A stretch of 64,000 nt of DNA from an uncultured Alphaproteobacteria bacterium (GCA_934276635.1 CAKQTH010000003.1:3063-67062), one strand, 5' to 3'. Positions 34,285 through 57,784 are shown, counted from the first letter of the stretch. Numbers and translations are program-made. Notes: generated by a model from the letters alone, not told the origin.

Positions 34285-35301
34285 ATGATGAAACCTGTTG
34301 AGAAAAAAAATCCGCAACCGCAAAAAATTAAATCAAAAAAGATATTTTTGGAATTTGTTTTAATCGGCTTTGTGCTTGCGATTGCATATGGAGTATGGCA
34401 GAATTTTGAACAAATAAAAAATTCTTTTAAAACCGAAAAAGCGGCAGAAACTCCGCAAATTGACATTGCCGCAGAGTTAAACGGCAAAGCCGCAAAAACG
34501 GATATTTATGCTTTGCAGCAAAAAATCGGTGATTTGCAGGCCGCGCTCGGGATCGTCGCAATCAAAAATTCTCAGGCGGTCGATACCACAATTCTTGAAG
34601 AAAAAATTTCGTCCCTCGGAACGCTCATTAACTCGGTCATCAACGGAAAGGCCGATGCCAACTCGGTTTTAGGGCTTTCCGCTCGCACGGACAAACTAGC
34701 CGCCGAAGTAGACAGATTGTCACGCATAAACAACGAGGGGGCTTTGATTTTGACCGCGGTTATGATGATAAAAGAAAACGCGCTTGAAGGCAAAGATTTT
34801 TCTTACGGAGCAGAAATTTTGAGCGAACTCGGCGGTAACAATCCGAAAATAAGCACCGAAATAAACACTATCCGCGAGCTTTCCGGCTCTGAGATTTTGA
34901 GCGACAAACAGCTTTCAGCAGACTTTGCCTCAATTTATAAAAATCTAACAACAAAATCGGCAGAAAAACAAATTGAACAAAGCTGGCAGGACAGAATTAA
35001 CTCAAAGCTTAATCAGATTATTTCCGTAAAGAAAATCAACGACAAAGGCGAACAGATTTCAGAAAACGAGCAGGATAAATTTTTTGCGACATTGCGTGCT
35101 TTAAACGAAAAAAACAACATCAAGGCTCTGGCCGCACTGCTGAAAAACTCCGATAACGAATATATCCGCTCAAACGATGAAATTTCCGTTTGGATAAAAA
35201 ATGTTGAAAACAAAACAGAATTTTCGGACGCGGTCAACAAAATCAGCAACTATTGTCTAATGCTGATTCGTCTTAACAGTTTGGGACTGAAAAACAACTG
35301 A
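34285..35301 (+). CDS. N-terminally anchored coiled-coil membrane protein, HemX / alphaproteobacterial Mic60-like (338 aa)
   Basis: The track ORF starts at a TTG at 34213. I prefer ATG at 34285 (GAGGA 7 nt upstream): MMKPVEKKNPQPQKIKSKKIFLEFVLIGFVLAIAYGVW. The protein has one TM helix, a long helical region and a conserved-looking C-terminus (…FFATLRALNEKNNIKALAALLKNSD…ISVWIKNVENKTEFSDAV…). It is divergent from tsaD, the neighbourhood where the hemC-hemD-hemX/mic60 cluster sits in alphaproteobacteria. Confidence 0.55.
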   Translation: MMKPVEKKNPQPQKIKSKKIFLEFVLIGFVLAIAYGVWQNFEQIKNSFKTEKAAETPQIDIAAELNGKAAKTDIYALQQKIGDLQAALGIVAIKNSQAVDTTILEEKISSLGTLINSVINGKADANSVLGLSARTDKLAAEVDRLSRINNEGALILTAVMMIKENALEGKDFSYGAEILSELGGNNPKISTEINTIRELSGSEILSDKQLSADFASIYKNLTTKSAEKQIEQSWQDRINSKLNQIISVKKINDKGEQISENEQDKFFATLRALNEKNNIKALAALLKNSDNEYIRSNDEISVWIKNVENKTEFSDAVNKISNYCLMLIRLNSLGLKNN

Positions 35302-36692
35302 TGAACAAAGCGGAAATTTTTGAACATTGGAACAAGCTGCTTGCCGAGGCAGAAAAGTTTTTGCCTAATCTTTCGCATATTCAAAATGCGGCGTCCTGCT
35401 TTAATGCCAACATAGACGCCATAATTCAGCTTTCGGGAGAGGCGCTTGCCGAGGCAATAAGAAACTGCCCTGATTTTGACCTCAAAGAATCCAAAAGCAA
35501 CTATCGCAAAGCCGACACCTTATGCGAGGTTTTATCCGGGCTGCTTAAATGTTTTGCCGAAGGGATTGCCGAGGAGAGAACAACCAAAAACGGACAAATA
35601 TGCGTATCATTGCAAAAAATGTTTCCGCCGCAAAAATTTCAAATGGGCGGACAAGGCGGAATTATCGCCAATCTTTTGTCTTTGTGCGGCATCAAAAATG
35701 TTGCGGTTCACACAAACTCTCTGCCAAAACTTCAGGCTGAACAATTCTTAAACAAAGATAACCTGCTAGCCTTTGACGAGCTCGGAAATCCTACTCCTGC
35801 ATATCGCACCATGCGGCAAAACGACACGCCGCTGGTTCATCTGATTTTTGAGTTCAAAAAAGGCGACAGCGCGCATATCGGAGGCAAAGTTTTCACTTGT
35901 CCGAAGTCCAATCGTTTTATTGTCAGCTGCGATGAAAAAAATCAAAATATGATTGTCGATGATGCGTTTGTCAAATATCTGAACACTGTTCATCAGGATT
36001 ATATTTTTCTTTCCGGCTTTCATATGCTTGATGAAAAAAACGCAGGCACCGTCATTCCAAAAATGAAAAATCTGTTATTAAATTTGAAAAACGACGCACA
36101 AAAAAACAGCATTTTTCATCTGGAAATTGCATCTACTCCGTCGGACAAAGCCAGAAAAATGACTCTTGATGAAATCGGAACAATCGTTGATTCCATCGGG
36201 CTCAATGAGCGTGAAGCCTGCGACATCATAAATGTTCTTTATCCGGATATTGACCTCAAACCGAATGCGGTTGATATGTTCAGGGCAATATCTCTGATAA
36301 AAAAGTACACAAATATTTCCCGAATCGAACTTCATATGCTCGGGCTTTTTATGACCATGCAAAACAAAAATATCAGCATCAGCCCGCAAAAAGCCAAAGA
36401 CGGAATGTTGCTCGCCGCCAGAATCGGCAGCAGCCGCGCCGTCCTCGGCGATTTGAAAGAAGAAAAAGACCTGTTGTCGTCTCAAAATTTTGAAATATCG
36501 GAAATCGGGTATTCAGAATTGAAAAATTTATCAGAATATCTGCAAAGCGAAAATCTTTTGACCTATGGAATTTTCTGCGGTGGTGATTTTGACTTGATAG
36601 CCGTTCCGACAATGCTCGAAAAAAAGCCGAAAAGCCTCGTTGGAATGGGCGACACCATCTCATCAATATCACTACTCGGAACACACCTATAA
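35301..36692 (+). CDS. ADP-dependent sugar kinase family protein (ADP-glucokinase / ADP-phosphofructokinase-like), 463 aa
   Basis: Three family motifs occur in the expected order: NANIDAI near the N-terminus, MGGQGGIIANLL (the GG-x-x-x-x-AN segment), and C-terminal VGMGDTISS (the catalytic GxGD). The start codon overlaps the upstream stop (TGATG at 35299-35303). Confidence 0.75.
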   Translation: MNKAEIFEHWNKLLAEAEKFLPNLSHIQNAASCFNANIDAIIQLSGEALAEAIRNCPDFDLKESKSNYRKADTLCEVLSGLLKCFAEGIAEERTTKNGQICVSLQKMFPPQKFQMGGQGGIIANLLSLCGIKNVAVHTNSLPKLQAEQFLNKDNLLAFDELGNPTPAYRTMRQNDTPLVHLIFEFKKGDSAHIGGKVFTCPKSNRFIVSCDEKNQNMIVDDAFVKYLNTVHQDYIFLSGFHMLDEKNAGTVIPKMKNLLLNLKNDAQKNSIFHLEIASTPSDKARKMTLDEIGTIVDSIGLNEREACDIINVLYPDIDLKPNAVDMFRAISLIKKYTNISRIELHMLGLFMTMQNKNISISPQKAKDGMLLAARIGSSRAVLGDLKEEKDLLSSQNFEISEIGYSELKNLSEYLQSENLLTYGIFCGGDFDLIAVPTMLEKKPKSLVGMGDTISSISLLGTHL

Positions 36693-36694
36693 AA

Positions 36695-37663
36695 CTAAGT
36701 AACTTCGGTAATGGCACGCAGGTTGCCGTCGCGGTTGATTTGCACGACTCTCAATTTGTGATGCATTTCCTCAATCGTTCTCTTTCTGTCAATCGTCGGA
36801 TATGTATGCAAAATACGATCGGTAAACGCCTTGTACGCAGCCTCGGAACTTTCGGCGTGGATTGTGGCTAAACAGTTATCGTGGCCTGATCCCATAAGCT
36901 CCCAAATTGCACCTGCGTTTGATGTTGAAATCTCGCCTCCGATAATTGCATCAGGCGTAAAACGAACCACAAGGTCGATGATTTTGCTGTAATCCATTTG
37001 GTTGGTTTGTTCGGTACGAGACAAAACTAAATGCACACGATTGGGGTGCGGAACCAAAAGCTCGCGTGTATCTTCAATCGTCAAAATGCGCTTATTGATA
37101 TTGATAATTTTCAAAAGGTTGTTCAAAAAGGTTGTTTTACCGGTAGAAGTTGCACCTGAAACCAAAATATGATCGCCTCGTTTTAAACTTAAAATAAGCC
37201 TTTCGTACGGATCTTCCGGATCGGCAATCTGTTTCAACGGATTAATCTTGTGCAATGCCTGCCCCTGCGCCAAACCATAATCCTGCAATCCGAATGCAAC
37301 ATCATCGCTGTGAATACGAATTGTAAGCGCGATACCGCCGGTAACATCTTCCTGATCATACATCACATTTCGGCCGGCAATGGCAGAAAAACGGTGTTCA
37401 CCCGGGATTGTGGCGTATACCACCGGCGAGCCCTGTATCGGGTCAAACGGAAGTTCGTATGTGTTTGCCACAATATAAAGCAAGTCAGTCAGATATTCTT
37501 TGGAGAGCTTTTCATCATTGTAGGCAACCCACGGATACGCTCTTTTTCCGCGCAGGCGCAACCATATCTGTCCGCCGTGATTTATCGCAACTTCCTCGAT
37601 ATTGTCCTGATTATACCAATATGCCAACGGCCTTAAAACTGATTCCAATACTGCAAAGCTCAT
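36695..37663 (-). CDS. virB11: Type IV secretion ATPase VirB11
   Basis: 322 aa with Walker A GATSTGKTT, Asp box RILTIEDTRE, Walker B PDAIIGGE and His box GHDNCLATIHA. Last gene of the T4SS operon. Confidence 0.93.
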   Translation of the reverse strand: MSFAVLESVLRPLAYWYNQDNIEEVAINHGGQIWLRLRGKRAYPWVAYNDEKLSKEYLTDLLYIVANTYELPFDPIQGSPVVYATIPGEHRFSAIAGRNVMYDQEDVTGGIALTIRIHSDDVAFGLQDYGLAQGQALHKINPLKQIADPEDPYERLILSLKRGDHILVSGATSTGKTTFLNNLLKIININKRILTIEDTRELLVPHPNRVHLVLSRTEQTNQMDYSKIIDLVVRFTPDAIIGGEISTSNAGAIWELMGSGHDNCLATIHAESSEAAYKAFTDRILHTYPTIDRKRTIEEMHHKLRVVQINRDGNLRAITEVT

Positions 37664-37675
37664 ATTTTCTTCCTT

Positions 37676-40600
37676 TTAGAATAATTGGGGAACTCCACCG
37701 TCTCCTGAAGACTGATCGTCAGAATAGGTTGTGTTTCCGGTATCATACGACGGCGGCGGGGGCGGAGGTGTGCCGATTGGACTTGTGGTAACCGGAGGAA
37801 TGGTTGTCGGAGAAGACGATCTTGCTTTTGACGAGTTATCTTCAAGCAACGGTATTGACTTTTGCGCCTGAACGCCGTCAACCGAACCTTCTTCATATAC
37901 GACTTTTCCTGCCGCGTCTCCGCCGCCTCCGGATACGCCGTTAATATTTATACCCTTATCGTTTGCTGTTCTTTCTGCCTGAGTTTTATCGTCATCAATA
38001 AGGATTTTAGGCTTTTGATTTTTAGCCGTTGCTTCAGCCGCATTATCGATTGTGCGCAACCACAAATCCACATTCGGATATACAATAATTCTGGTACCCG
38101 CTGGGACATAGGTCAACGGTTTAATATCCATCGCATCTTGCATAATCTGGTTAAATACCTGCTTCATACTGTCTTGAAAATCTTCACGCGAATCATTCAT
38201 TGCCTGCTGTCGCGAACTTTCAACCCCGTCGGTTCCCGACTCGTCTGTCGCAAACATCATGGATATGGCACTGGTAAGAGTGGTCGTAATAATCGGTGCA
38301 GAATATTTTTTAAGCAACTGCTTATCAAGATATCCGAGCGCTCCGCCGCGGCCCTGCGCATCTCCGGTAATTCCCTGAAGCTTAAAGGTAGAGCCGTCCG
38401 GACGAATAAGTCTGTCCCATGTAATCTGAACTTTTGCAGAGTTAGACATCTGCTCTTCTCCCGCGGTCAATCCGCCGAGCGTTCCGATAAATCTGCTGCC
38501 CGCCGGAATCAACACATTGCGGCCTTCTTCGGCATACACATTTCTTTCAACAAACGCGGTAACCGGAGTCGGGTTGCTGCTATCAATCGAGCGCGCCAAT
38601 ACTGCCGGAATCGGCTTATCGGCCAGAATCATCTCGCTCATATCAACACGCCAGCTTGAAATATTCTTTTCGATGCCCAAATCAGTCCAGTCTTTTTGTT
38701 TGCCGTCAAATGTGCTTGCGTCTATACCTGTGCTGATTTTGCGCACCGACATCGCCTGACGACGCTCATTTTGAGCCGCAGAGAGCGCGGCAGCGCGTTG
38801 GGCGTTATATCTTTCACCCGGACCGTATCCGCCGCCGGGTCCCAAATTTCCGACGCCGGTTCCGGTACCATAAGCTCCTCCGTCACCGAAAGTTCCGGCC
38901 GGAACAAATATATCCTGCCCTTTCGGACGCTTGACTTCTTCGATACCGATAAGGTTTCCGTCGTTATCAATAATCAGTCCGTCCGGCATCTTTTTTCCGA
39001 TAAGAGAGCCGTCTCTGCTGACAACATCGCCGTTATCCATAATATTTCCGAGATAATCACCGTCCGGTGTCAACGCAATCCCGATAACACGGCGGCTGAA
39101 TCCGCTGACTTCTTTTTCATCATCCTGCTGATTTGATTCGTTTGCGCCGATATTGACAGTCGTGCTCGGCTTTTTTGCTTTCGGCGAATAATATTGCAGC
39201 AAATACGGAACTCCGACGACTTTTCCGTCAGAAGATTTAACCTTGCCGTCTTGCGCAAGAGTACCGATTAAGACATTGTCGGTATTATACAATTTTCCGG
39301 AGATTCCGAGCTCGCCGACCGAAATTCCGTTTGCACCGCGAACCCAATAATCTCGATTTATTCTTCCGATTAATTTGTCTTTTTCGTTGAGCAAAAAGCC
39401 CTGATCAATCGTGCCTAATACATTTTTGGAAAAACTTCTGACTTTGCCGTCTTTTTCAATATATCCGATTGCTTTCCAACTGTCGTCATAAACATAAAGG
39501 TCATATGCGGCATAGCCGATTTTTTCTCTTTTATCAACAACATAACCTTCATAATCAACTCGTCCAACATCTTCATTTTTGTTGTTGATTACCCTGCCGC
39601 TTTCCAGAACGCGTCCCAAGAAAGCATTGTTGTTGTCAAAAGCATAGCGATAGCGGAACAAGCGGCCAATGACATCTCCTTCCGGCGATACCACGGTTTC
39701 ATCAAGCGAAACTCTGCCGATAACTTTGCTGTCATCATCAACCACCGAACCATCAAAAACGCTGCGGCCGATAATTTTTCCGGAAAAGTCCATTACCGGG
39801 CGATAACGAAGGGACGATGCAATCATCTTTCCGTCATCATCTTTCAGATATCCGCGGATATCCACACACCCGAGCTTAGTATTGTTCAAACTGAACGCAA
39901 AGCCGCTGACCGACGGAGTTGCGAAAATCGCATTTTTATTATCTGTCAGCAAATTGGGCAAAACTCTGTATCCGGCGACGGCTCCGCCTTCCGAAACGAC
40001 CTGTCCGTTTTGCAATATATTGCCGACTACCGAATTTTTATAGTTTCTGACATCTCCGCGCGGAGTCACAACACCCAAAAATGTGCATTTTTCATCAACA
40101 ACCACGCCCGGTTCCAAAAGCTCGCCCTGAACGGCGCCGGTTGCGTCTATCATCACGCCACCATCCGAAATTTTTCCGATAATGCTTTTTTCTTTATCAA
40201 AAACAGAGCCTGTTTCTTCAACATATCCGACAAACGATCCGTTTGAGGCAATGACCATATCGGCCGAAAACGCATTACCGATTTTCGGAGAAATCGTATT
40301 TGTTATATTTTCATCGGAGGCCGATACCGACATATCCGGCAGAATTTTTGCAACGGCTTTTTGCGCGGAATTCAGCACAAGATTGTTTTCGGAAATTGCG
40401 CCGAGAATATCTCCGCTGCGGTTGATAACATATTGTGCATTAATGTTTTTTCCACGAATCTGCTTTCCGTCAATATTGGCATATCCGTATTGCAGCACAT
40501 CGGCAATTTTTGCGTATTTGTCGTTCAAAACTTCGGCATTCGGCGAAATATATCCGAATACGGAACCGGACAAATCATACGCCGCGCCGAGAGGAATTGC

Positions 40601-41905
40601 CGAACCGGAAATTATTCCGTCAGAGCCGTAAACATATCCGAACGGCGATACAAAGTTGCGGTCAAGCCCTTTGATATATTCCGAAATTCCGTTCATTCCG
40701 ATTGCGCGGTTGTTTTTATCGACAATCAGCTGCTCGTAAGCCGTTGCGCCGACAATCTCTCCGACATTATTAAACACTTTGTTTCCGCTGATGCGTCCCA
40801 TTGCCGAGCCGTCAAGAGAGATAACCGCTCCGCCTTTGGTCGCATGAGCAATAAGTCTGGCTCGATAATCAAACACCGGTCCGGAGTTGATAACTTTTCC
40901 GGCAATCTGCCCTGCGGAATTAAGCATATTACCGCGGGCGGAAACCGCTCCTATAATTTCTTTTGCTTTGGCGATTTTTCCTTCCGGCATAAGTCTTCCG
41001 ACATAATTTCCCTGCAAATCGGATATTGTGGCGGCAATATCAACAAAAAATCCGATAACTTCCTGCTGTTCATTCACAATTCTATCATCAAAGCGCATAT
41101 GCCCGACAACCGCATTGTCCTTAACCACATCGCCATTATAGCTTACAAAACCGAGATATTGTCCGTTGTCGGATATTGCATAACCGTTTTTAACGATACG
41201 ACCGATGATTTTTCCTTCTTCATTATAGGCGTATCCGTTTGCATGAATGCTTCCAATAATATTTGAATCAAAGTCCGTAACTTTACCGCCGAGCGCCACG
41301 CTGCCGATAAATTGTCCGTTTTGCGAAATTACCATTTTTGAAGAAATAAGCTTTCCGTCAACAACATAGCTGTCGCCGTTTCGTTTGTAGGCATATCCGT
41401 CTGCCGAAACAAAACCGATAACTTTTCCTTCCAGATTTGTATAATTTCCGTCACCGGTCAAGCGCCCTATTGTTTTGCCTTCATCGGAATATACCAACCC
41501 AGGGAACAAAACCGCACCGATAATGTCATATTTGTCATCAATGGCAAGACCGCTCGGCAAAACTCTGCCGGCAGATTTGCCAGAAGACAGGCGCACCGAA
41601 CCGTCATTATTAACTTTTCCGAGCATTTTGTTGTCATTTCCGATAACAATACCTTGCGGAATAACGCCGCCGATAAGCTCGCCTTTTTCATTTATAATAA
41701 AGCTGTCCGCGTTTACATTGCCAATAAGTTCATTATCAAAGCTGACGACTTTTCCGTCCGGAATAACTTTTCCGAGCAGGTCGCCGTTAAAATCAATAGC
41801 CGTAATTTCCTGCGCCGATGCATTTGACATTGCGGCAAAAGGCAGCACCAAGGCCGTCAGGGCAATTATTTTTATGTTTTTTATTATCTTACTTATGGCA
41901 ACCAC
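37676..41905 (-). CDS. virB10: Giant VirB10-like protein (1409 aa): Sec signal peptide, ~950 aa of short repeats, Gly-rich linker, TrbI/VirB10 core, Pro-rich C-terminal tail
   Basis: GTG start at 41905 with GGAGGA 8 nt upstream. The signal peptide is MVAISKIIKNIKIIALTALVLPFAAMSNASA/QE. The VirB10 core lies at about 38055-38670 (…SSWRVDMSEMILADKPIPAVLARSIDS…VLIPAGSRFIGTLG…ITWDRLIRPDGSTFKLQGITGDAQGRGGALGYLDKQ…YVPAGTRIIVYPNVDLWL). The tail is …TTIPPVTTSPIGTPPPPPPSYD…. Confidence 0.88.
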   Translation of the reverse strand: MVAISKIIKNIKIIALTALVLPFAAMSNASAQEITAIDFNGDLLGKVIPDGKVVSFDNELIGNVNADSFIINEKGELIGGVIPQGIVIGNDNKMLGKVNNDGSVRLSSGKSAGRVLPSGLAIDDKYDIIGAVLFPGLVYSDEGKTIGRLTGDGNYTNLEGKVIGFVSADGYAYKRNGDSYVVDGKLISSKMVISQNGQFIGSVALGGKVTDFDSNIIGSIHANGYAYNEEGKIIGRIVKNGYAISDNGQYLGFVSYNGDVVKDNAVVGHMRFDDRIVNEQQEVIGFFVDIAATISDLQGNYVGRLMPEGKIAKAKEIIGAVSARGNMLNSAGQIAGKVINSGPVFDYRARLIAHATKGGAVISLDGSAMGRISGNKVFNNVGEIVGATAYEQLIVDKNNRAIGMNGISEYIKGLDRNFVSPFGYVYGSDGIISGSAIPLGAAYDLSGSVFGYISPNAEVLNDKYAKIADVLQYGYANIDGKQIRGKNINAQYVINRSGDILGAISENNLVLNSAQKAVAKILPDMSVSASDENITNTISPKIGNAFSADMVIASNGSFVGYVEETGSVFDKEKSIIGKISDGGVMIDATGAVQGELLEPGVVVDEKCTFLGVVTPRGDVRNYKNSVVGNILQNGQVVSEGGAVAGYRVLPNLLTDNKNAIFATPSVSGFAFSLNNTKLGCVDIRGYLKDDDGKMIASSLRYRPVMDFSGKIIGRSVFDGSVVDDDSKVIGRVSLDETVVSPEGDVIGRLFRYRYAFDNNNAFLGRVLESGRVINNKNEDVGRVDYEGYVVDKREKIGYAAYDLYVYDDSWKAIGYIEKDGKVRSFSKNVLGTIDQGFLLNEKDKLIGRINRDYWVRGANGISVGELGISGKLYNTDNVLIGTLAQDGKVKSSDGKVVGVPYLLQYYSPKAKKPSTTVNIGANESNQQDDEKEVSGFSRRVIGIALTPDGDYLGNIMDNGDVVSRDGSLIGKKMPDGLIIDNDGNLIGIEEVKRPKGQDIFVPAGTFGDGGAYGTGTGVGNLGPGGGYGPGERYNAQRAAALSAAQNERRQAMSVRKISTGIDASTFDGKQKDWTDLGIEKNISSWRVDMSEMILADKPIPAVLARSIDSSNPTPVTAFVERNVYAEEGRNVLIPAGSRFIGTLGGLTAGEEQMSNSAKVQITWDRLIRPDGSTFKLQGITGDAQGRGGALGYLDKQLLKKYSAPIITTTLTSAISMMFATDESGTDGVESSRQQAMNDSREDFQDSMKQVFNQIMQDAMDIKPLTYVPAGTRIIVYPNVDLWLRTIDNAAEATAKNQKPKILIDDDKTQAERTANDKGININGVSGGGGDAAGKVVYEEGSVDGVQAQKSIPLLEDNSSKARSSSPTTIPPVTTSPIGTPPPPPPSYDTGNTTYSDDQSSGDGGVPQLF
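38945..41790 (-). repeat. Coding array of degenerate ~15-20-aa repeats (h-x-x-D-G-x-V-h-D-x-x-G-x-h-I-G-x-h) in the VirB10-like protein
   Basis: Visible in the translation, e.g. DGKVVSFDNELIGNVNADSFIINEKGELIGGVIPQGIVIGNDNKMLGKVNNDGSV…. The array ends at …PDGLIIDNDGNLIGIEEVKRPKG. Confidence 0.85.
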
Positions 41906-41907
41906 TG

Positions 41908-44900
41908 TTAGTTCCTCCGATTTTGCGCAACTTCCTGCAGAGCATAGCCGGCAACTTTCTTATCTAAATCTACAAACGAACCATTATTTTTGATATATCC
42001 GATATCTTTTCCGTCAACCGAAACAACGCGGCCGGATGCATTGACTCTTCCGAGATATGTGCCGTCATTGCTCAAAACGCTGGCGCCGATTTTATATATC
42101 GCACCCAAAATATCATTTTGATTATCTATGACATATCCGCCGGAGAGCACTCTTCCGATTGTATCTCCGTTTTCGGAAACAACCGTACCGTCATATTTTA
42201 CAAAACCGACTACCTTATCTTTTTGGTCAATAACAATATCTCCGTCCAAAACCTCGCCGATAAGTTTTCCATATGAGTTAACCGCTTTGCCGTCGGAAAG
42301 CATTTTTCCAATAACAATTCCGGTCTTGTCGGCAATTTCTCCGTTCGGCAAAACCATTCCGATCAAATTTCCCGAAAAATCAACCACCGGCCCGCGTTTC
42401 AAAAGACTGAGGTTTTTGTCGGTCGAACCGCCCGGAAGAACGGCCGTAATATTTTCGCCGTTAAGGCTGACAACATTTCCGAGCGCATTAATATAACCTT
42501 TTGCATCACCGAATACATCTATTGCAACGCCTTCGGCCACAACATCTCCGACCAGTTTGCCTTCTTTATTCAGAACTTTTCCGTCCGCAGTCGCAACGCC
42601 TTGAACTTCTCCGTCCAAATCTGCGATATCGCCGTCTTCAACCACATATCCGAAATAAGAACCGTCATATCCGATTGCCGCGCCTGAAACAACCATTGCA
42701 CCTTTCATATTTCCCTTATTGTCAAAATATGTTCCTTTGGCATCAACATAACCGAGCTGTTCGCCGAAACGGCTGATAACTCTTCCGTCATAAATAACTT
42801 TTCCGATTTTTTTGCCCGAAAAATCTATAACGGAATTAAACGGCAGATTAACCCCAATTATATCTCCGTAAAAACTCTTGCCGTCGCCGAACATCTTGCC
42901 GATGGATTTTCCGGCCGCATCATAAACATTGCCATCAAAAAACAGAGTTCCGATATATTGTCCTTTGGCGTTGATAATCGGGTTATGCTCCGGCAACGCC
43001 ACACCGACAACTTTGTTGTCTTTGTCTATAATCATATTGTTCATTGCCAGATGCATACCTTCTTTGCCTTTGACCGGAACTTCACCTCGGTCGTTTACAA
43101 AATTCAGAAAATTGCCTTTCAAATCAAACGCATATTTGCTGTTCAAAATTTTGCCGATATGCCGCCCGTTCTGGTCTATAATATCTCCCGAAACTCCGAC
43201 GCAGCCGACCGGAAGCATTGCCGGCGAAACCACAACGCCGTTGTCGTTTACATATCCGATATATTCTCCGTTATAGCTGAAACCGGCACCGTGTTCAACG
43301 ACTCTTCCTACTAAATCGCCGTTTTCGTTCAAAACACCACCGTCCGGATTTAAGCAACCGACATAATTTCCGGCGTCGCTTTTTACAATACCATCAGTTC
43401 CTGCTTTTCCGAGATAATTGCAGCGGCTGTCATAAACACGCCCTGTTTTCAGCGGTTGTCCGACATAGCGGTTCTGTTCGTCCAAAATCACGCCGTCAGG
43501 AATAACTCTGTATGGAAGTTCTTCTTTTCCGGCAATGACTTTTCCGCTTTTTTCAAGGTATCCTATGCGTCTGCAGCCCCAGCCGATAACCATTCCTCCG
43601 GCAACGCCTCTGCCTATAACTTTGCTGCCGGCCGGATTTTTAATAAGCGTATTCGGCAAAAGCCTACCGACAACCTCACCTTTTTCGTTTTTGACATCTC
43701 CGTTGTTGGCAACCTCGCCCAAAATACTTCCGTCCGGAGCTACCGGAATCAGGTTTGTATTAACCAAAGCGCCTATTTTTCTGCGCTGTCCGGCAACACC
43801 GATAACATTGCCGTTCGCATCAACGATTCTTCCGTCAGCCGTAACTTTTCCAACAACATTACCGTCTTTGTCAACCACCGTTCCGTCTGGCATAACGCGC
43901 CCGATGACATTTCCGTTTTCATCAAATGCAAGCTGACTTTCATCGCCAACTTTACCGATAACATTTCCGTCTTTATCAACAATCGTGCCGTCTTCGTTAA
44001 CTTTGCCGACTATGTTGCCGTTAAAATCAACAACATTGCCGTTTTCATCGACATAGCCGATTAAATTGCCATCTTTATCATAGGCGCCGCGTCTTTTTAC
44101 CGGTTCTACCGGTGTATATATATTGCCGTTTTCGTCAACATAGCCTACAATATTTCCGTTTTCATCAACAATTGAGCCATCAGGCATAACAACGCCGAGA
44201 TAATTCCCGTTCTCGTCAGTCGCGATTTTTCCGGCTTTGGCAACTCGGCCGATGACATTGCCGTCAAAATCAACCACCGTTCCGTCCTCATTAAGTTTTC
44301 CGATAACATTGCCGTCTTTGTCAACCACCGTTCCGTCCGGCATAACACGGCCGATAATATTTCCGTTTTCGTCATACACAAATCCGGTATCTACCGCTTT
44401 GCCGATGACATTGCCGTCTTTGTCAACCACCGTTCCATCCGGCATAACCTTTCCGATAACATTGCCGTCTTTGTCAACCACTGTTCCGTCAGGCATAACC
44501 TTTCCGATGACATTACCGAATTCGTCATACACAAGCTTTTCGTTATCCGCAACACCGATAATATTGCCGTCTTTATCAACAACCATACCGGCAGAATTTA
44601 CACGGCCGATAATATTTCCGTTTTCGTCGCGGACATAACCGTCATCATCGATATATCCAATGACTTCTCCGTTCGGTCCGATTGCAACACGGGATTTATC
44701 TATTGTGGCTTTTTTGCTTTCTGCCGCCGGAGCTTCGCAAAAATTGCAGTCTTCTTTGCGGATTGCGCGGCCGTATACCGGAACTTTTGAGGCTTTGGCG
44801 TTCGCATCGCTGACATTTGTTTCTCTCCACGATATCACAAAGTTATTCTGCACATTTCCGGCCACAATCGGCGCCCATTTTATGGTAATATGGCATGTCT

Positions 44901-45342
44901 GGTCGCCTCTGAGTTCTTGATTGGAGCATCTTTCTTCATAAACAAATCCGTCCGCCGGAGGGTCAGCCAAATTTACCGCCACAATTCGTATCGCGGTTTT
45001 TCCGTTGGTGCCGATAGTCAAAACATTGTCTGCAGTCGTACCGAGCACAACCTGCCCCATTTCAACCGGATCCGGCGTGGTCGTAATCGGAATTTCGCCT
45101 TCTTCAACATCGGAAAATTCTATATTGTCGGTCAGAACATTCCCCGTATCAAGATTTAGAGCATCATCATTGGCCGTAAATACCGGCTCTTCAAAGGTCT
45201 CTTCCACCGTATTGCTTTGAATAAGCAAAAATACGCCTAAAAAGAAAACCACCATAGAGACTATTCCGACAATCAGAATAATTCTGTTGGTTTTCTTTAT
45301 ATAGGTCTCAGAATGTGTAAGTCTTTGTTCTTCTTTACTCAT
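41908..45342 (-). CDS. N-terminally membrane-anchored repeat protein (1144 aa) built from the same repeat as the VirB10-like protein
   Basis: The track ORF starts at 45363. ATG at 45342 forms an ATGA overlap with the virB9 stop. MSKEEQRLTHSETYIKKTNRIILIVGIVSMVVFFLGVFLLI gives a cytoplasmic tail plus one TM helix. A ~150-aa Cys-containing beta-type domain follows, then ~920 aa of repeats, e.g. VMPDGTVVDKDGNVIGKVMPDGTVVDKDGNVIGK. Confidence 0.85.
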   Translation of the reverse strand: MSKEEQRLTHSETYIKKTNRIILIVGIVSMVVFFLGVFLLIQSNTVEETFEEPVFTANDDALNLDTGNVLTDNIEFSDVEEGEIPITTTPDPVEMGQVVLGTTADNVLTIGTNGKTAIRIVAVNLADPPADGFVYEERCSNQELRGDQTCHITIKWAPIVAGNVQNNFVISWRETNVSDANAKASKVPVYGRAIRKEDCNFCEAPAAESKKATIDKSRVAIGPNGEVIGYIDDDGYVRDENGNIIGRVNSAGMVVDKDGNIIGVADNEKLVYDEFGNVIGKVMPDGTVVDKDGNVIGKVMPDGTVVDKDGNVIGKAVDTGFVYDENGNIIGRVMPDGTVVDKDGNVIGKLNEDGTVVDFDGNVIGRVAKAGKIATDENGNYLGVVMPDGSIVDENGNIVGYVDENGNIYTPVEPVKRRGAYDKDGNLIGYVDENGNVVDFNGNIVGKVNEDGTIVDKDGNVIGKVGDESQLAFDENGNVIGRVMPDGTVVDKDGNVVGKVTADGRIVDANGNVIGVAGQRRKIGALVNTNLIPVAPDGSILGEVANNGDVKNEKGEVVGRLLPNTLIKNPAGSKVIGRGVAGGMVIGWGCRRIGYLEKSGKVIAGKEELPYRVIPDGVILDEQNRYVGQPLKTGRVYDSRCNYLGKAGTDGIVKSDAGNYVGCLNPDGGVLNENGDLVGRVVEHGAGFSYNGEYIGYVNDNGVVVSPAMLPVGCVGVSGDIIDQNGRHIGKILNSKYAFDLKGNFLNFVNDRGEVPVKGKEGMHLAMNNMIIDKDNKVVGVALPEHNPIINAKGQYIGTLFFDGNVYDAAGKSIGKMFGDGKSFYGDIIGVNLPFNSVIDFSGKKIGKVIYDGRVISRFGEQLGYVDAKGTYFDNKGNMKGAMVVSGAAIGYDGSYFGYVVEDGDIADLDGEVQGVATADGKVLNKEGKLVGDVVAEGVAIDVFGDAKGYINALGNVVSLNGENITAVLPGGSTDKNLSLLKRGPVVDFSGNLIGMVLPNGEIADKTGIVIGKMLSDGKAVNSYGKLIGEVLDGDIVIDQKDKVVGFVKYDGTVVSENGDTIGRVLSGGYVIDNQNDILGAIYKIGASVLSNDGTYLGRVNASGRVVSVDGKDIGYIKNNGSFVDLDKKVAGYALQEVAQNRRN
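43850..44560 (-). repeat. Near-identical 51-bp (17-codon) DNA repeats inside the 1144-aa gene
   Basis: The units at 44411-44461 and 44462-44512 differ at 4 of 51 positions. Further copies of ATTGCCGTCTTTGTCAACCACCGTTCCGTC(C/T)GGCATAAC start at about 44308 and 43858. Confidence 0.85.
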
Positions 45343-46976
45343 TGTATCCTTACTACGCTGCAAAATACGCCGTTACGCCCAAGCTGGCTGCAAACTTTGT
45401 CGCCAGCGTCCAAACTTTTTACCGGCCCGACTCTCAAATGAAACAGCTCTTTGCCTTGTCCATCGGCCGGGGCATCAACCGAATAAAACGGCTGATATTC
45501 ACCCAGAACTCCGGAATATTTATCCGACAAATCACTCCAAAGCGTTTCCAAATTCGTTACATTTGCATCTGTGCCGAGTTCAATCGAAATATTTGAGCCG
45601 GAAGCATCAGACAAACCTGAGCCGTAACGATATCCGCTATACGGATTTTGTCCACCGACCGCGCCATAAGCGCCGCCTTGACCAAATCCTTGTCCCTGAC
45701 CTTGTTCGGCACCCCGATTCCAGCCGTATTGTCCTTTCTGTCCGCCCGCATAATCAGCATTATCTCTGACCGGCAATCTTCCGTTCATTGCGTCTTCATA
45801 GCTGATTGAATTTCCGCCGCTGGCATAAGAGTTAACTCCGTTTCCATAAGAGGCTTCTCCACCCTGAGACGAGCCGCCGTATGCTCCGCCGTTGCCGGAA
45901 CCGGAACCGTCTTGTCCGTCAGGCATTTTCGGGCCGACATCCCAGCCGTGTTCCTGATATGTCGGAGAAAATTCGAGCCCCTGATCGTCGGAACGACGCA
46001 ACTTCAGGCAAACAATTCTTTTGCCGTTGCGCAAAACCATATCGCCGATACCCTCAACGATAATCAGTCTGTTGTTAGGACCTTTTGTTCTGAATCCGAC
46101 CGGAGTTTCAATTTTTTCAACAATCAGAGTTACAATCGGGCGCTGTGTCATTGTCAGCGATTTTTCGCCCAAATCAATATATGTGAAAATATCGTCACGC
46201 CATACTCTTTCCGGTGCAATAACCACATCGTCCGGATTCGGCACATAAACTTCTATATCAAAACGGAATTTTGACGGATCCATCGGGATACTCTGAAGCC
46301 AGTCATCTTGTAAAAATCTTTTTGTAAAGCGAGAATCTACCGAGAACGGATTTCCGTTGTTGCTGCTTGCGTTTACATGTCCGCCGCTCTTTATCGGAAC
46401 GCCGCCGGAAGCCTTAGATTTTCCGTTTCCGTCAATAACTTCGATATCAATAATTGAGTTTGTCAGTCTTTCGGTATTAACCCCTTCGCTCTTTACATAG
46501 AACACATATTTATTTCCGCTGCGGCCAAAAACGATAATATTTGTATCAACGCCGACATTGGCGCCTTTCTTCGGATATAGCAACAAGGTATTCGGGCCGG
46601 AAATTTGTCCGTCAAAAGTAGCGCTATCGCCGATATAGATGTCTTCTACCATTTCCCATTCCGGAAAATTGACCAAAGTCATCATACCTTCGCGCAGGCG
46701 CATCGGCAACACCAAATCAGGCGTCCAATAATATTTTGAATAAGCAGGTTTGCTTTGTCCTTCACCCAAATTTTGCAGAGGATCAAGCCACGCGCTTTGA
46801 ATCATGCCCAAAGAGTTGAACCCGGCATATCCCATATCCATCGGGGTATATTGTCCGGTGCTTTGGTCGGCGTTTTGATCAAGGCTTCCGGTAGAAACCT
46901 GTGCCCTTACATTGCCCGTTGCAAACAGAGCAACTGCCAAAATCAAAAATATTTTCCTAAACTGACAAACCATCAT
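45339..46976 (-). CDS. virB9: VirB9-like outer-membrane core protein with Gly/Ser/Gln-rich linker and C-terminal SPOR-like domain (545 aa)
   Basis: Signal peptide [25 protein letters not shown]. VirB9/CagX-type N-domain (…MTLVNFPEWEMVEDIYIGDSATFDGQ…NKYVFYVKSEG…) and C-domain (…IAPERVWRDDIFTYIDLGEK…RLIIVEGIGDMVLRNGKRIVCLKL). The final 85 aa are …LFHLRVGPVKSLDAGDKVCSQLGRNGVFCSVVRIQ. Confidence 0.88.
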   Translation of the reverse strand: MMVCQFRKIFLILAVALFATGNVRAQVSTGSLDQNADQSTGQYTPMDMGYAGFNSLGMIQSAWLDPLQNLGEGQSKPAYSKYYWTPDLVLPMRLREGMMTLVNFPEWEMVEDIYIGDSATFDGQISGPNTLLLYPKKGANVGVDTNIIVFGRSGNKYVFYVKSEGVNTERLTNSIIDIEVIDGNGKSKASGGVPIKSGGHVNASSNNGNPFSVDSRFTKRFLQDDWLQSIPMDPSKFRFDIEVYVPNPDDVVIAPERVWRDDIFTYIDLGEKSLTMTQRPIVTLIVEKIETPVGFRTKGPNNRLIIVEGIGDMVLRNGKRIVCLKLRRSDDQGLEFSPTYQEHGWDVGPKMPDGQDGSGSGNGGAYGGSSQGGEASYGNGVNSYASGGNSISYEDAMNGRLPVRDNADYAGGQKGQYGWNRGAEQGQGQGFGQGGAYGAVGGQNPYSGYRYGSGLSDASGSNISIELGTDANVTNLETLWSDLSDKYSGVLGEYQPFYSVDAPADGQGKELFHLRVGPVKSLDAGDKVCSQLGRNGVFCSVVRIQ

Positions 46977-46987
46977 TTTGTTACCTT

Positions 46988-47740
46988 TTATTGTACTTTA
47001 TTATGCATTAGAGAATATCTTACAACTGTAAATCCTACCGGATTTTTCATTCTTTCGCCATATTTTACGGTTTTTTCGCGATATACAATCCGCAAAGAGG
47101 CTGTCCAATAATTTATCTCCGGAGCGGCAGAGTTCGGATACATATCCTGCGTTTCATACTCAACCTGCCACAATCCGCTGTCAAGTTCGTTAACCGTCAG
47201 AATTCTGACCATACGAATAATGCCCTTTGTTTGAATAATTTTGAGCGCGCGTTTGGCTGTTTTTTCCAAAAAATCAGCATACACGCCGGAAGACGACATC
47301 TCTTGAATCATTCCACCGGGCATCCAACGCGCTTCCATTTCCTGTAAATCAGAATCAAAAGAGCTGCGGTTCAGCACATATTCGCGCACAAACGCTTCCG
47401 TAATGGATTTTCTGTCTTCCATTTTTCCGTTAATCGGAACAATGTTATAAACTTGTTCATCTTTGCTTTGAAAAGTCAACAAAAACGGTTCAACACGATA
47501 AAGCGGAATAAGCTGCATAATCGCAATCAGCAAAACAAGATTGCAACAAAGGCTTATTGCGGTCACAACCGCAAAGGCTCTGGCAGTCCACAGATATCTT
47601 TTTTCGCTGGCATTAACCAAAACCGCATCTTCACTGGCCTTAACTCTTTTACGCGGAGCAGACGAAGGGCGTTGAGCAGTCGGTCTTCCGTTGCCTATCA
47701 ATCGTGTGTTAACACCGTTATTGTTAAAATTTTCTGCCAT
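46988..47740 (-). CDS. virB8: VirB8-like protein, copy adjacent to virB9 (250 aa)
   Basis: Bitopic: basic N-tail, TM helix (…AFAVVTAISLCCNLVLLIAIMQLI…), then a periplasmic domain ending …YWTASLRIVYREKTVKYGERMKNPVGFTVVRYSL, the typical VirB8 C-terminus. Confidence 0.88.
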   Translation of the reverse strand: MAENFNNNGVNTRLIGNGRPTAQRPSSAPRKRVKASEDAVLVNASEKRYLWTARAFAVVTAISLCCNLVLLIAIMQLIPLYRVEPFLLTFQSKDEQVYNIVPINGKMEDRKSITEAFVREYVLNRSSFDSDLQEMEARWMPGGMIQEMSSSGVYADFLEKTAKRALKIIQTKGIIRMVRILTVNELDSGLWQVEYETQDMYPNSAAPEINYWTASLRIVYREKTVKYGERMKNPVGFTVVRYSLMHNKVQ

Positions 47741-48092: not shown

Positions 48093-48842
48093 TTATAGGA
48101 CTTCGACCTCGGTTTGCGAATATCTGACCACCGTAAAGCCCAACGGGTTAAACAATCTGACGCTCATAAGCTCGCGGCCACGAATAAAATATGCGGTCAT
48201 AGAAGCTGTCCAATACTTTGTTTTCAAAGGAATTTCTCCGGTCCTAAGGTCTCTGGCCTGAGGATTCAACTCATAAGTCTTAAAGTCGATTTTCCAAACC
48301 GGAGAATTTTCTCCGCCCTGCTTTCCGACCGATATAATTTCAACCTCGCGAGAAGCTCCGGAATCTCTGACGGACTGCCATTCCGCTTTTCTTTGCTTGT
48401 CAAACTCATCAAAAACATTCTGCATCGACAAAAAGTGAACCCAGCCGCCTGCAAACCATCTGATTTGCATCTCTCTTTCATCGTTAATCAGCGAGTTGCG
48501 TATAATCACATATTGCTTTACAAAAATTTCCATCAGCTGCTTTTTAGAGGCCATATTATACTCTATCGGCTCGTGGCGCACAAGCCCGTCGGTCGCATCC
48601 TGTTTAACAATCAAAAACGGTTCGACTTCAACCCTAGGCGCCATTCGAAACAGCACCAAAGAGGCAGCCATAAACACAATAAGAGAAACGGAAGCAAACA
48701 AAATGAGCAAACGAGCCAACCACTTATAATAATTTTCTTTCAAAGTGGAAAGCCGGCCGTCAACTTCGGTCGCATACGCGCGCTGCGGCTCAGAATTTTT
48801 GTTTTCATTCGTAATTGCTAAAATTTTTGTTCCGTCATTCAT
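48093..48842 (-). CDS. virB8: VirB8-like protein, second paralog (249 aa)
   Basis: Same architecture as the other copy (TM helix …LLILFASVSLIVFMAASLVLF…; C-terminus …YWTASMTAYFIRGRELMSVRLFNPLGFTVVRYSQ). Confidence 0.88.
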   Translation of the reverse strand: MNDGTKILAITNENKNSEPQRAYATEVDGRLSTLKENYYKWLARLLILFASVSLIVFMAASLVLFRMAPRVEVEPFLIVKQDATDGLVRHEPIEYNMASKKQLMEIFVKQYVIIRNSLINDEREMQIRWFAGGWVHFLSMQNVFDEFDKQRKAEWQSVRDSGASREVEIISVGKQGGENSPVWKIDFKTYELNPQARDLRTGEIPLKTKYWTASMTAYFIRGRELMSVRLFNPLGFTVVRYSQTEVEVL

Positions 48843-48851
48843 CTCTTATCC

Positions 48852-51800
48852 TCAATCTACGGCATAATTTGCACAATACGGCTGAACTCCGCCCTTCATC
48901 TCATTGGCAAAGGCTTCTTCCTCTTGCTTTTTATATTCTTCGCTGGCTTTGCGGTTTACCTGCTCGGATATAACTTTTTGAGCAAAATCTGCCGAATTTC
49001 CGTCCGTATCTTCACCGACAACCACCACTTCTTCATTGTCTTTTACCAAAGCGGCATACATTCCTTTGAGCTTTTTGAATTTTTCTTTCAAATACTCGTT
49101 GTTTTCTTCCTGCATTCCGCTCAAAGAAGAATATGCTGTTTTCAGGTTTTTATTCTTGATGGATTCCATCGCCTGCGCAACCTGATTATAATCGGCGTCT
49201 ATTGCCAAATCCAAATCCGGTTTCGGAGAAAATCCGGCTTTTTTCAGCGATTCAATAAGGCTTTCTCTTAAAGCATCGACCTCTTCTTTGAGTTCTTCCT
49301 GCGCCTGCAATGTCGTCTGTTCGTTTTCGGCCAAAGTCAAAAAGTCTCCGAATTGGTTGCGGTTGAGCTGCGCACGATATTTTATAGCCATACTGTTGCT
49401 AGTCTTTTTGCTTTCAGTTGCGTCTCCGCCGTCCTCGTCCTTATCGATTTTATAAAAAGTATCTTTCGCACCTTTTGTAATCATAATAAAGCTCTTGCCG
49501 AGCTGTTTCGATGCCGAGAACAACAAGCCCATCTCGCTGCCTCTTTCTTTCGAACTGCTATAAGCATATCCTCTGTCCGCGAATATTTTATCATTAAAAT
49601 CAACATCTCCCTGAGCTTTGGCATATACCTTATCCGAAACCGTGTCCTGAACGCCTCCGCCCGGTTTCATAGGCGACGGCTTTGTTTGACTCAAATATAT
49701 TTCCTGACAATTCGGAATTTTTTCAAAGCTTTGTTTCGGCGCTCTGCGGCTCAAAATATATCCGTTTTTAGTTACTGCCGTTGTCGCCGGTATTTTGATA
49801 TCAACATAATAGTCGCCCATTTTGCACGGATAAATTCCGCTGCGGAAAAATTCTATATTTTTCTTATCATCTCTCGGGCTTCCCAATCCTTCGGTTCCGT
49901 TTTCCGTCGAAAACAAATTGTAGCTTTCTTCCACATACGAGTGCAAATCAAGCATTCTTTGCCAAATTTCCGGCATATTTGATACACTCTTCAAAATTGC
50001 GTCTTTGGTAACTTTTTTGCCGGTATAAGTATTTTTGTCATCATAACCATAACTTTTCGGCATATTTACATAGTCATCAACATCAAAATATATAATCTCG
50101 CGCATCGGCGGCAGATATTCCTGCGCGGCAACACGCGGAGCCTTAAAGTCTCGCGCCACTGGATACGCCCCGACGAAAAAGTCGGTATCGGCATTCAAAC
50201 AAACATTGTTTTCACAAACCTTATCCATCACATATTTTTGCAGAATTGATTTTGCAAGACTAATCATTCTATCCGTCCGATATCCCTTTGTTATTAAAGA
50301 TGTCAAAATAGAGGTTTGCGGATTTTTCAGTTCATCAATAAGTTCCTTATGAATCTTCATAAGTTCTTTGTGTCCGGCCGGAGTATAGATATAGTTATCG
50401 TCCTTTTTGCGCAATGCTTTAATTTTTTCTTCTGCACAAATTATTCTGTCTTTTGCATAATCCAAAACTCCGTTCCATTTATGCGAAGAAAAATCGGCTT
50501 TCGCTGTGCAGCTTCCGGCAGACGGGGTTCCGACAATATCGTCCACAATACCGACAAATTTTAAGATATATTTGTTTCTGTCAACAGTGTTTGTGTATAT
50601 TTTTTTATACATCTTTGCCAAACCGCCGTTTTTGTTTCTGCTGTCGAGCGTATTATTTTTTTGTTTTTGGATTTCTCCGTCAGCTCCGCTATAATATTCT
50701 TCTATATAAAGAATTTTGGCATCGGTACAAGCGTAGCTTTCTACATTATTACATTCCTTTTGCTTTTCAAGGCTGCATTGGTCCAAACTTTTTTTGCAGG
50801 TGTCCGGATCATCATTAAGCTTTTTCTTGTTTGCGGCAATCTCATTTTCCAATGTGGTAATTTGCTGTTGCAAAACAGACATCTGCTTATTTGCAACCGT
50901 CAGCTGCGCGTTAGTCTTTTCCAAAGTACTTTGGCTTTGTGCTTTGGTTTCTTTTGCATATATAGCCTGTCCTGATTTTTTATCTTTGGAAATTTCCTGT
51001 CTTTTGGCCACAATTTCCAGATTGTTATCCATATCCGTGATTGTGCCTTCAGCCTCTTTTTTTGTATCTTTCAGGTTGTCAATCGTTGTCTGAAGCTCGT
51101 TCTTTTGCGTATACAGTTTTTCGAGCTGGGTTGTTATCGCTTTATTCTTATTTTCCAAAGATCTCCGCGCTGTTTCTCCGGTGTTTTTAACACCTTGAAT
51201 TAACTGGTTCTTAGCGCTTACCAATTCGGCTAATTTTTTGTTGGCAAAAAAGTTTGTCGTGTAATCATATTTTCGACCGTTCAGCTTAGTTTTAAACTCA
51301 CTGAAGGCAGATCTCGCTTTTTCTTTTTCCTTATCATTTTTGTCATCGTCTTCATCATATCTTGTTCTGGAAACAAGCTCCGACATCATATCAATTCCGG
51401 TTCCGGTCAGCGCTGTCAATGTCTTGCCGTCGTCGTTTTCGTCCATATCAAAAAACGGCCATACATCGTTCAGATACAATTTCATATTTTGATATTTTTT
51501 CTCAAGATATTGATCATAGAATTTTTTCTGGTCATTCCATATCGGAAACTTGCGTTTCGGCTTGCCCCAGCTTTGCGTTGTATATTGATCCTGCGCCAGC
51601 TTTTTGGCCACCGCCGCGCCAATAAGGAAATTAAACTTATCTTTCAGGTGTTCGTTCTTTTTTATCTGCTCCTGACGGCTCGGAGAACCGGCTCCGGCAA
51701 CCGAGCTTGAACCATCGGAATCTTCATCGCTGGAGTGCTTTTGTTTCAATTTTGCCTTAGAATTTTGCACCGTTGCATCAACATCTTCACCGGTGTCGTC

Positions 51801-53549: not shown

Positions 53550-53561
53550 CTTATTTCTCCT

Positions 53562-54890: not shown

Positions 54891-54892
54891 TA

Positions 54893-56255: not shown

Positions 56256-56276
56256 TGTATCTTTTCTCCTCGCCTT

Positions 56277-57707: not shown

Positions 57708-57784
57708 TTTGTTTCTCCCAAAAGCATCAGATGATAAATAATAACATACAAAATATCTTTGATAAAGATTTTTTTGCAAAATCG

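Follow-up and report, generated by a model that had tools for sequence, protein, structure and literature searches.

Evidence for a probable split of VirB10 into two repeat-bearing proteins in a type IV secretion system of uncultured gut Alphaproteobacteria

A stretch of 64,000 nucleotides from an uncultured Alphaproteobacteria bacterium (GCA_934276635.1, CAKQTH010000003.1:3063-67062), referred to here at its full length as the window and numbered from its first letter, carries a type IV secretion system (T4SS) in which two genes occupy the place of virB10. Among the subunits of a T4SS, VirB10 alone is described as spanning from the inner-membrane complex to the outer-membrane core complex, and a role in relaying ATP-dependent signals across the envelope is ascribed to it (PMC12857230). 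In the window, the genes are arranged as virB8 - virB8 - virB9 - gene A - gene B - virB11. These genes lie on the minus strand, which had not been stated in a preliminary description of the same DNA, and the coordinates of their features given below refer to this strand. The upstream gene A (41908-45342; 1144 amino acids (aa) plus stop) is proposed to encode the N-terminal half of a split VirB10, and the downstream gene B (37676-41905; 1409 aa, GTG start), the gene of the VirB10 homolog, the C-terminal half. The open reading frame (ORF) of gene A between virB9 and virB10 was confirmed, and the gene calls of other groups on independent assemblies likewise give a product of 1144 aa.

Protein A begins with a conserved charged cytoplasmic tail (residues 1-20, 45283-45342; MSKE..LTHSE.Y.KKTNR), which is kept in split and fused relatives (see below). 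It is followed by a single predicted transmembrane (TM) helix (residues 21-41, 45220-45282), a 21-residue uncharged stretch with a mean Kyte-Doolittle hydropathy of 3.1 over 19 residues, preceded by KKTNR, followed by an acidic segment and the sole hydrophobic segment of this kind in the protein. An uncharged run of 21-28 residues is found at this position in all 73 orthologs. The AlphaFold2 (AF2) model of A, computed from 33 aligned sequences (mean pLDDT 80.4, pTM 0.68), agrees with the hydropathy and consists of a helix (11-41), a disordered linker (42-83), a beta-sandwich (87-189), uninterrupted beta-hairpins (218-1134) and a short helix at the end. The short charged tail of the preliminary description is present, and its single TM helix is predicted by both approaches. 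A probably has an N-in/C-out topology with an inner-membrane anchor, and by its sequence it carries this membrane anchor without an export signal. A TrbI/VirB10 domain was not found in protein A with Pfam.

The beta-sandwich (residues 84-195, 44758-45093) is an immunoglobulin (Ig)-like domain of the ASH/PapD type with the invariant residues Cys139 and Cys150. It had been recognized by eye as Ig/ASH-like with paired cysteines, and this assignment is backed by the predicted structure, which is ASH/PapD-like though the domain stays below threshold by sequence. Foldseek retrieves HYDIN (2e6j, TM 0.60), CEP192 (6fvi, TM 0.58) and OCRL1 (3qbt, TM 0.49) with the model of this domain, each with a probability of 1.0 and with TM scores normalised to the target. 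Pfam ASH (PF15780) gives 22.9 bits on A and 26.7 bits on the ortholog P0003 at a cut-off of 27, and NCBIfam choice-of-anchor D gives 27.8 bits on A at a cut-off of 45. At the other end of the protein, residues 1126-1144 (41911-41967; ...DLDKKVAGYALQEVAQNRRN) form its most conserved segment, with a mean identity of 0.88 among 73 species. This C-terminal peptide ends with ...VAGYALQEVAQNR, the orthologs have the same ending, and the segment is a candidate docking end.

Protein B starts with a predicted signal peptide instead of the tail and anchor, in keeping with the earlier observation that these parts are missing from the downstream VirB10 homolog. The Sec-type signal peptide (residues 1-31, 41813-41905) is predicted from its h-region and the -3/-1 rule. 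It contains three lysines, a 15-residue h-region with a proline and the predicted cleavage site ...SNASA|QE, so that B is probably cleaved at ASA|QE and the processed N-terminus would be QEITAIDFNGDLLGK. The signal peptide is followed by a beta-hairpin array (residues 32-898, 39212-41812; Pfam Bflower_2, AF2), a Gly/Pro-rich disordered linker and the VirB10/TrbI C-terminal beta-barrel domain (residues 1093-1283, 38057-38629). In the AF2 model of B (pTM 0.76), the array has a pLDDT above 90. Pfam TrbI (PF03743) matches B with 127.5 bits at a cut-off of 35 and covers profile positions 2-188 of 188. By sequence, the barrel matches solved structures of ComB10 (2bhv, E 5.9e-21), Xanthomonas citri VirB10, TrwE, CagY (8cb2, 9vgf) and TraF (3jqo), and because of this homology to solved VirB10 structures B is considered a genuine VirB10. 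The conservation of B is 0.60-0.78 at mature residues 26-225, 0.2-0.5 in the middle of the protein and 0.16 in the signal peptide; the first ~200 mature residues are conserved to the same degree as the TrbI domain. The ~100 residues before the C-terminal end of B are of low complexity and poorly conserved.

The two proteins have the same repeat, as had been noticed in the preliminary description. The array of A (residues 215-1134, 41941-44700; Pfam, Tandem Repeats Finder (TRF), AF2) consists of ~54 tandem beta-hairpin units of 17 residues of a beta-flower/YD-like type, and the array of B, where the repeat covers residues 34-898, of ~57. The period is 17 residues (51 nt) in both proteins with the same unit consensus, which in A reads x-V-x-P-D-G-x-V-V-D-x-D-G-N-V-I-G, and the hairpin tips in both arrays bear a [DN]xxG motif. 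Pfam Bflower_2 (PF21785) scores 232.4 bits on A and 176.3 bits on B at a cut-off of 38, with eight matched stretches each, and overlapping matches to DUF3659, Bflower and RHS/YD repeats are found in the array of A. In BLASTP, the two arrays align over 879-982 residues with 26-27% identity (E about 1e-57). The hairpins are modelled confidently, with a pLDDT of 80-92 in the array of A and of 80-95 over both proteins. Long exact DNA repeats were not found in the arrays. The best tandem array is a higher-order repeat in A with a period of 153 nt (44242-44636, 79-84% matched in TRF), which lies in the length-variable canonical part.

The starts of both genes are coupled to the stops of the preceding ones, and the features of both junctions described earlier can be read directly in the sequence. 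The ATG of gene A (45342-45340) overlaps the TGA of virB9 (45341-45339) in the motif ATGA, with a Shine-Dalgarno sequence AAGGA at 45347-45351. The stop codon TAA of gene A (41910-41908) is followed by 'CA' and by the GTG of gene B (41905-41903), which is in another frame and has its own Shine-Dalgarno sequence GGAGGA (41913-41918). The latter is embedded in the Arg-Arg-Asn codons CGG AGG AAC (41911-41919) that end gene A, and these codons are under a dual constraint as protein-coding sequence and Shine-Dalgarno sequence. The coupled stop-start arrangement with its embedded Shine-Dalgarno sequence favours co-production of A and B. At least 22 contigs, which come from different samples and assemblers, encode the exact sequence of protein B, and 81 nt around the A/B junction are identical to the window in 10 of 10 independent contigs examined, so that a sequencing error, which had been raised earlier as a possible cause of the two frames, is ruled out.

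When one genome per GTDB species was scanned, 209 relatives of the N-terminal module of A were found. The best 80 loci were fetched, eight of which are cut by contig ends, leaving 72 informative ones. In all of these 72 species loci, A is directly followed by a separate TrbI-bearing gene, and the order virB8-virB9-A-B-virB11 is found in the window and in the 72 related loci. The 72 species are at 54-68% protein identity, and the protein lengths are 1068-1624 aa for A and 1360-1886 aa for B. Length changes in A concentrate in canonical repeats around residues 476-525, and the array length variation among species, which amounts to hundreds of residues, comes from local expansion. The lengths of A and B are weakly negatively correlated in the 72 species (Spearman -0.42, p 3e-4); this correlation is uncorrected for phylogeny and is not used as evidence for end-to-end docking.

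The mature-end motif of B was found in 67 loci. In these, A ends with ...L-Q-E-V-A-K-N-R-R-N, and its stop codon is followed by 1-4 nt, a TTG, GTG or ATG start of B, a variable signal peptide ending with AxA and the near-invariant mature end (Q/I/E)-E-I-T-A-I-D-F-N-G-D. Among 68 signal peptides (the 67 loci and the window), 65 have Ala at position -1, and a small residue is found at -3. With a length of 25-35 aa, the signal peptide is unconserved, in contrast to the conserved mature end QEITAIDFNGD. The reading frame of B relative to A differs among species (0, +1 or +2), which speaks against read-through or frameshifting as a conserved mechanism. The two genes share a frame in 13 of the 72 species (L004, L013, L040, L042-L044, L052, L057, L067-L069, L077, L081), where B starts 3 nt after the stop of A. 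In these 13 species, one stop-codon substitution would re-fuse A and B, yet none is fused in the clade.

When the TrbI core was analysed by neighbour joining, all split-type proteins grouped in one clade without fused proteins in 198 of 200 bootstraps. This points to a single origin of the split. Support for the branching order of the fused lineages is weak (85/200). The split-bearing clade comprises gut- and rumen-associated uncultured Alphaproteobacteria from human and animal hosts.

The fused relatives combine the tail, the TM helix, the Ig-like domain, beta-flower repeats and the TrbI domain in one protein of 1498-2201 aa, and their genes occupy the same slot as A and B (virB8-virB9-[X]-virB11). 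Four of them are P0040 (1930 aa, locus L001) and P0070 (1507 aa, locus L002), both encoded between virB9 and virB11, P0083 (1498 aa) and P0215 (2201 aa). Their identity with the window proteins is 26-31% when long alignments are considered and reaches ~44% in the TrbI domain. The N-terminal modules of split and fused proteins align with 17 invariant columns and have the Cys pair, a Trp and a Pro in common. A residues 5-1132 align to P0215 residues 3-1056 (449 bits) and B residues 30-1328 to P0215 residues 822-2108 (390 bits), so that A and then B appear roughly collinear on P0215 with a modest overlap. Only long high-scoring segment pairs (HSPs) are informative here; mapping of 120-residue segments onto the fused proteins is too noisy because the repeats cross-match. 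The presence of such single-gene versions in the virB9-virB11 slot supports the reading of the preliminary description that A and B correspond to the two halves of a VirB10-like bridge.

P0215 was obtained by a profile search with the N-terminal module of A, the top of which is filled by unrelated giant multi-Ig proteins. A search with the fused TrbI domain retrieved mostly N-terminally truncated gene calls, among which only P0285 is informative. This protein (563 aa, L083 8001-9692) has an N-terminal TM segment and a TrbI domain, no beta-flower repeats and a probable Ig domain with a weak match to the module of A (hhalign E 4.7e-4, probability 32%). Its gene sits in a canonical virB2-virB11-virD4 operon, and P0285 may show what VirB10 of this lineage looked like before the repeats were gained. 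A plausible series would lead from TM-Ig-TrbI via TM-Ig-repeats-TrbI to TM-Ig-repeats plus signal peptide-repeats-TrbI on two chains.

Two further observations concern the fused and split-type proteins. In locus L085 (7189-13721), a fused-type gene is broken into ORFs of 276 aa and 1906 aa with a 19-nt overlap; the intact 2201-aa P0215 is present in a related sample, the break lies at another place than the conserved split, and it may be a frameshift error or strain-specific. At the extreme C-terminus, where B ends with ...VPQLF (37676-37720), the motif (V/I)P(Q/A)LF is kept in split-type proteins; two fused lineages end with PAPRLF and PAPELF, and P0070 and P0083 end with PPPPGY.

These data suggest that A and B are very probably the two halves of one ancestral giant VirB10. 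The fused form is taken as ancestral by outgroup reasoning, because every other known VirB10 consists of a single chain anchored at its N-terminus. In this lineage, an Ig domain of the ASH type would have been added to VirB10 behind the membrane anchor, and a long array of 17-residue beta-flower repeats would have been gained between the Ig domain and the TrbI barrel. The gene would then have broken inside the repeat array in the last common ancestor of the large Alphaproteobacteria clade from gut and rumen. The tail, inner-membrane helix and Ig domain, together with ~54 repeat units, would have stayed with the upstream product. The downstream product would have gained a cleavable signal peptide, a start 1-4 nt past the new stop and, within the final codons of A, a Shine-Dalgarno sequence.

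The first alternative is a tandem duplication of a whole giant virB10 followed by reciprocal domain loss, in which copy 1 lost the TrbI domain and copy 2 lost the tail, TM helix and Ig domain and gained a signal peptide. It is consistent with the mutual alignment of the two arrays over ~900 residues, with the overlap of A and B on fused proteins, where both match one central region (P0040 residues 554-1200, P0215 residues 822-1056), and with the repeat residues of A plus B (~1900), which exceed those of any fused relative seen (roughly 900-1600, estimated from protein lengths). However, the overlap is weak evidence for a duplication because the repeats cross-align anyway, and in the best alignments A precedes B in a collinear order that leaves only ~235 overlapping residues on P0215. 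Moreover, local expansion changes the array length by hundreds of residues among species. Altogether, a duplication appears unlikely.

In the proposed split VirB10, A would insert into the inner membrane in an N-in/C-out orientation, with its Ig domain and repeat arm projecting into the periplasm. B, with its signal peptide of a cleavable type, would accordingly be exported by the Sec system and cleaved at ASA|QE, after which its TrbI barrel would join the VirB7/9/10 outer-membrane core while its arm hangs into the periplasm. The two arms would then re-associate non-covalently, most likely via the C-terminal end of A and the first ~200 mature residues of B, and rebuild the connection between inner and outer membrane that canonical VirB10 makes as one chain. 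This re-association is supported by the coupled junction and by the conservation peaks at the end of A and at the mature start of B. We would give functional re-association of the arms about even chances. As a whole, a single giant VirB10 that was split and whose arms re-associate in the periplasm is the best overall explanation, and we consider it likely.

Several points weigh against this explanation. The contact between A and B is deduced from coupling and conservation, not from direct interaction, and part of the C-terminal conservation of A, at the RRN codons, may reflect the embedded Shine-Dalgarno sequence and not a protein interface. Topology and cleavage are predicted from hydropathy and the -3/-1 rule. 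The ancestral fused form follows from outgroup logic, with a bootstrap value of 85/200 for branching among the fused lineages. Furthermore, the arrays of A and B align mutually and overlap on the fused proteins, which is compatible with duplication and reciprocal loss.

A more specific and tentative version of the re-association proposal is a reversible non-covalent coupling, in which an inner-membrane arm (A) and an outer-membrane arm (B), each in many copies and each a rigid rod or sheet of ~900 beta-flower residues, would dock via the C-terminus of A and the first two repeat modules of B. If true, this could allow the inner-membrane motor and the outer-membrane pore to engage and disengage or to adjust to the width of the periplasm. 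It would then also provide the first known function of the beta-flower fold and the first T4SS with a two-protein trans-envelope energy sensor.

Alternatively, the two halves could have the same origin and their products no longer interact. B would then be an outer-membrane-only VirB10 and A, with a role of its own, a scaffold or spacer in the periplasm tethered to the inner membrane, or an arm that binds the cell wall; the machine would be without a VirB10-type trans-envelope sensor. The indirect nature of the case for A-B interaction is in line with this possibility, as is the peptidoglycan-binding SPOR domain of the virB9 product (see below), which makes wall attachment a theme of the system. 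It is also in its favour that outer-membrane core complexes can assemble from C-terminal parts of VirB10 alone, as in the case of pKM101 TraF. The strict adjacency of A and B with a coupled junction of 1-4 nt in 72 of 72 species argues against it, and so do the conservation peaks exactly at both new ends and the conserved cytoplasmic tail that A has kept in common with fused VirB10s. We therefore regard uncoupled halves as quite unlikely.

Programmed recoding by read-through or frameshifting, which would yield a fused VirB10 beside the separate products, could be suspected from the distance of 1-4 nt between stop and start and from the shared frame in 13 of 72 species. It was rejected as highly improbable, because no single conserved recoding event fits relative frames of 0, +1 and +2 and because in a fusion the signal peptide would end up in the interior of a periplasmic chain; a slippery site or stimulatory structure was not noticed, though such elements were not searched for. 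The preliminary description had also considered A as an independent repeat adhesin or scaffold recruited into the operon, with an origin unrelated to VirB10. Beta-flower/YD-like repeats and ASH/choice-of-anchor-D Ig domains do occur in many unrelated giant surface proteins, and the profile of the N-terminal module matches thousands of multi-Ig proteins. This view did not hold either and is now very improbable: the tail motif, TM helix, linker and Ig domain with the same Cys pair are common to TrbI-ending proteins in the virB10 slot, and A has an inner-membrane anchor and not an export signal. Finally, an artefact or pseudogene caused by a frameshift or nonsense error in one gene, as the spacing of 2 nt between two genes with the same repeat and the frameshifted fused gene of the related contig L085 might suggest, is ruled out for practical purposes by the identical junction in 10 assemblies from different samples and assemblers, its recurrent architecture in 72 species and the well-formed -3/-1 signal peptide after the stop in 68 of 68 cases with the mature motif.

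Compared with canonical VirB10/TrbI/TraF/TrwE/ComB10 proteins (PF03743), B has the complete C-terminal barrel, A has the expected N-terminus with a short tail and a single TM helix, and A and B together fill the slot between virB9 and virB11. In canonical VirB10, the tail, the single TM segment and the barrel are on one chain, whereas here the tail and TM segment are on A and the barrel is on B. In addition, an Ig domain and beta-hairpin repeats amounting to ~1900 residues stand in place of the short proline-rich linker of canonical VirB10. The fused giant VirB10s are encoded by a single gene as a single protein without an internal stop or signal peptide, in contrast to the two genes A and B.

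Enlarged VirB10s with repeats are known as single chains. CagY of Helicobacter pylori is a VirB10 homolog of ~1900 residues with long repeat regions N-terminal to the VirB10 domain, and it is one chain with its own membrane segment, whereas A and B are two chains. The CagY repeats are alpha-helical, Cys-rich and unrelated to beta-flower repeats, and they recombine through long, near-identical DNA repeats. Such recombining repeats are not a feature of A and B, whose DNA repeats are only 70-84% identical. DotG (IcmE) of Legionella and Coxiella is a VirB10 homolog with long central repeats between its anchor and the VirB10 domain in an expanded T4SS (PMC12857230). It belongs to a type IVB system and is a single chain, in contrast to the two chains A and B. 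The repeats of DotG are pentapeptide repeats, not 17-residue hairpins. No report of a naturally split VirB10, of this T4SS, of a VirB10 with DUF3659 or of T4SS from gut Alphaproteobacteria of the RF32 type was found in the library searched.

Beta-flowers became known in 2023 as a fold of small proteins modelled by AlphaFold, with no function given (PMC10584680). The likeness of A and B to this fold (PF21784/PF21785; Durairaj et al. 2023, PMC10584680) lies in scores of both arrays far above the Bflower_2 cut-off. The described beta-flowers are small single domains of ~100 residues, whereas A and B have tandem arrays in subunits of a secretion machine. The fold is characterised by hairpins that close into shallow 5-fold barrels; hairpins are modelled with confidence in both arrays, and no beta-flower has a solved structure. 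The arrays also resemble the Rhs/YD shells of type VI secretion system Rhs proteins, Tc toxins and teneurins in their motif (Pfam RHS_repeat 56.5 bits, TIGR01643 64 bits). Foldseek finds a local similarity between Rhs cores and the array of B (8qjc, E 1e-22), but with TM scores of 0.07-0.10 a global superposition fails. Rhs shells are closed YD cocoons around a toxin, with an aspartyl protease of the DPxGL type at the C-terminus; the DPxGL motif and a toxin domain are absent from the sequences of A and B.

The retention of the split in at least 72 species shows that covalent continuity of VirB10 is dispensable: the link between the membranes must re-form without a covalent bond or be absent. 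The split is thus a natural separation-of-function case for the question whether the trans-envelope signal depends on chain continuity or on contacts rebuilt by two proteins. The beta-flower fold is placed in a first functional setting, as a periplasmic linker of VirB10 with arrays of ~900-1300 residues. Furthermore, the finding draws attention to a chromosomal T4SS that is widespread in little-studied bacteria of the human and animal gut.

The remaining genes of the system surround A and B. The virB9 homolog (45339-46976; Pfam CagX 44.4 bits) encodes a signal peptide, a Gly/Ser/Gln-rich low-complexity linker of ~100 residues and a C-terminal SPOR domain, which is peptidoglycan-binding and scores 22.3 bits at a Pfam cut-off of 21. 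A SPOR domain and a low-complexity linker are unusual for VirB9 and suggest an attachment of the core complex to the cell wall. One virB8 paralog adjoins virB9 (46988-47740; Pfam VirB8 76.8 bits), and a second one is located at 48093-48842. The gene of a virB11-type ATPase (36695-37663; Pfam T2SSE 78.6 bits) is the next after gene B, and virB4 (57785-60214) lies further upstream. The T4SS is regarded as chromosomal because it is flanked by the housekeeping genes infB, rpoB and tsaD. A polytopic VirB6 and VirD4 were not found among the window ORFs examined.

Five ORFs of 500, 224, 247, 442 and 1565 aa lie between virB4 and the first virB8 (48852-57779, minus strand). All of them have signal-peptide-like N-termini and are without a convincing family match; the 1565-aa ORF has only weak coiled-coil/SMC-like matches, and the 442-aa ORF has an alanine-zipper match. 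On the plus strand, an ORF at 35301-36692 has a strong match (215.9 bits) to the ADP-dependent phosphofructokinase/glucokinase family PF04587, which is mainly archaeal and eukaryotic.

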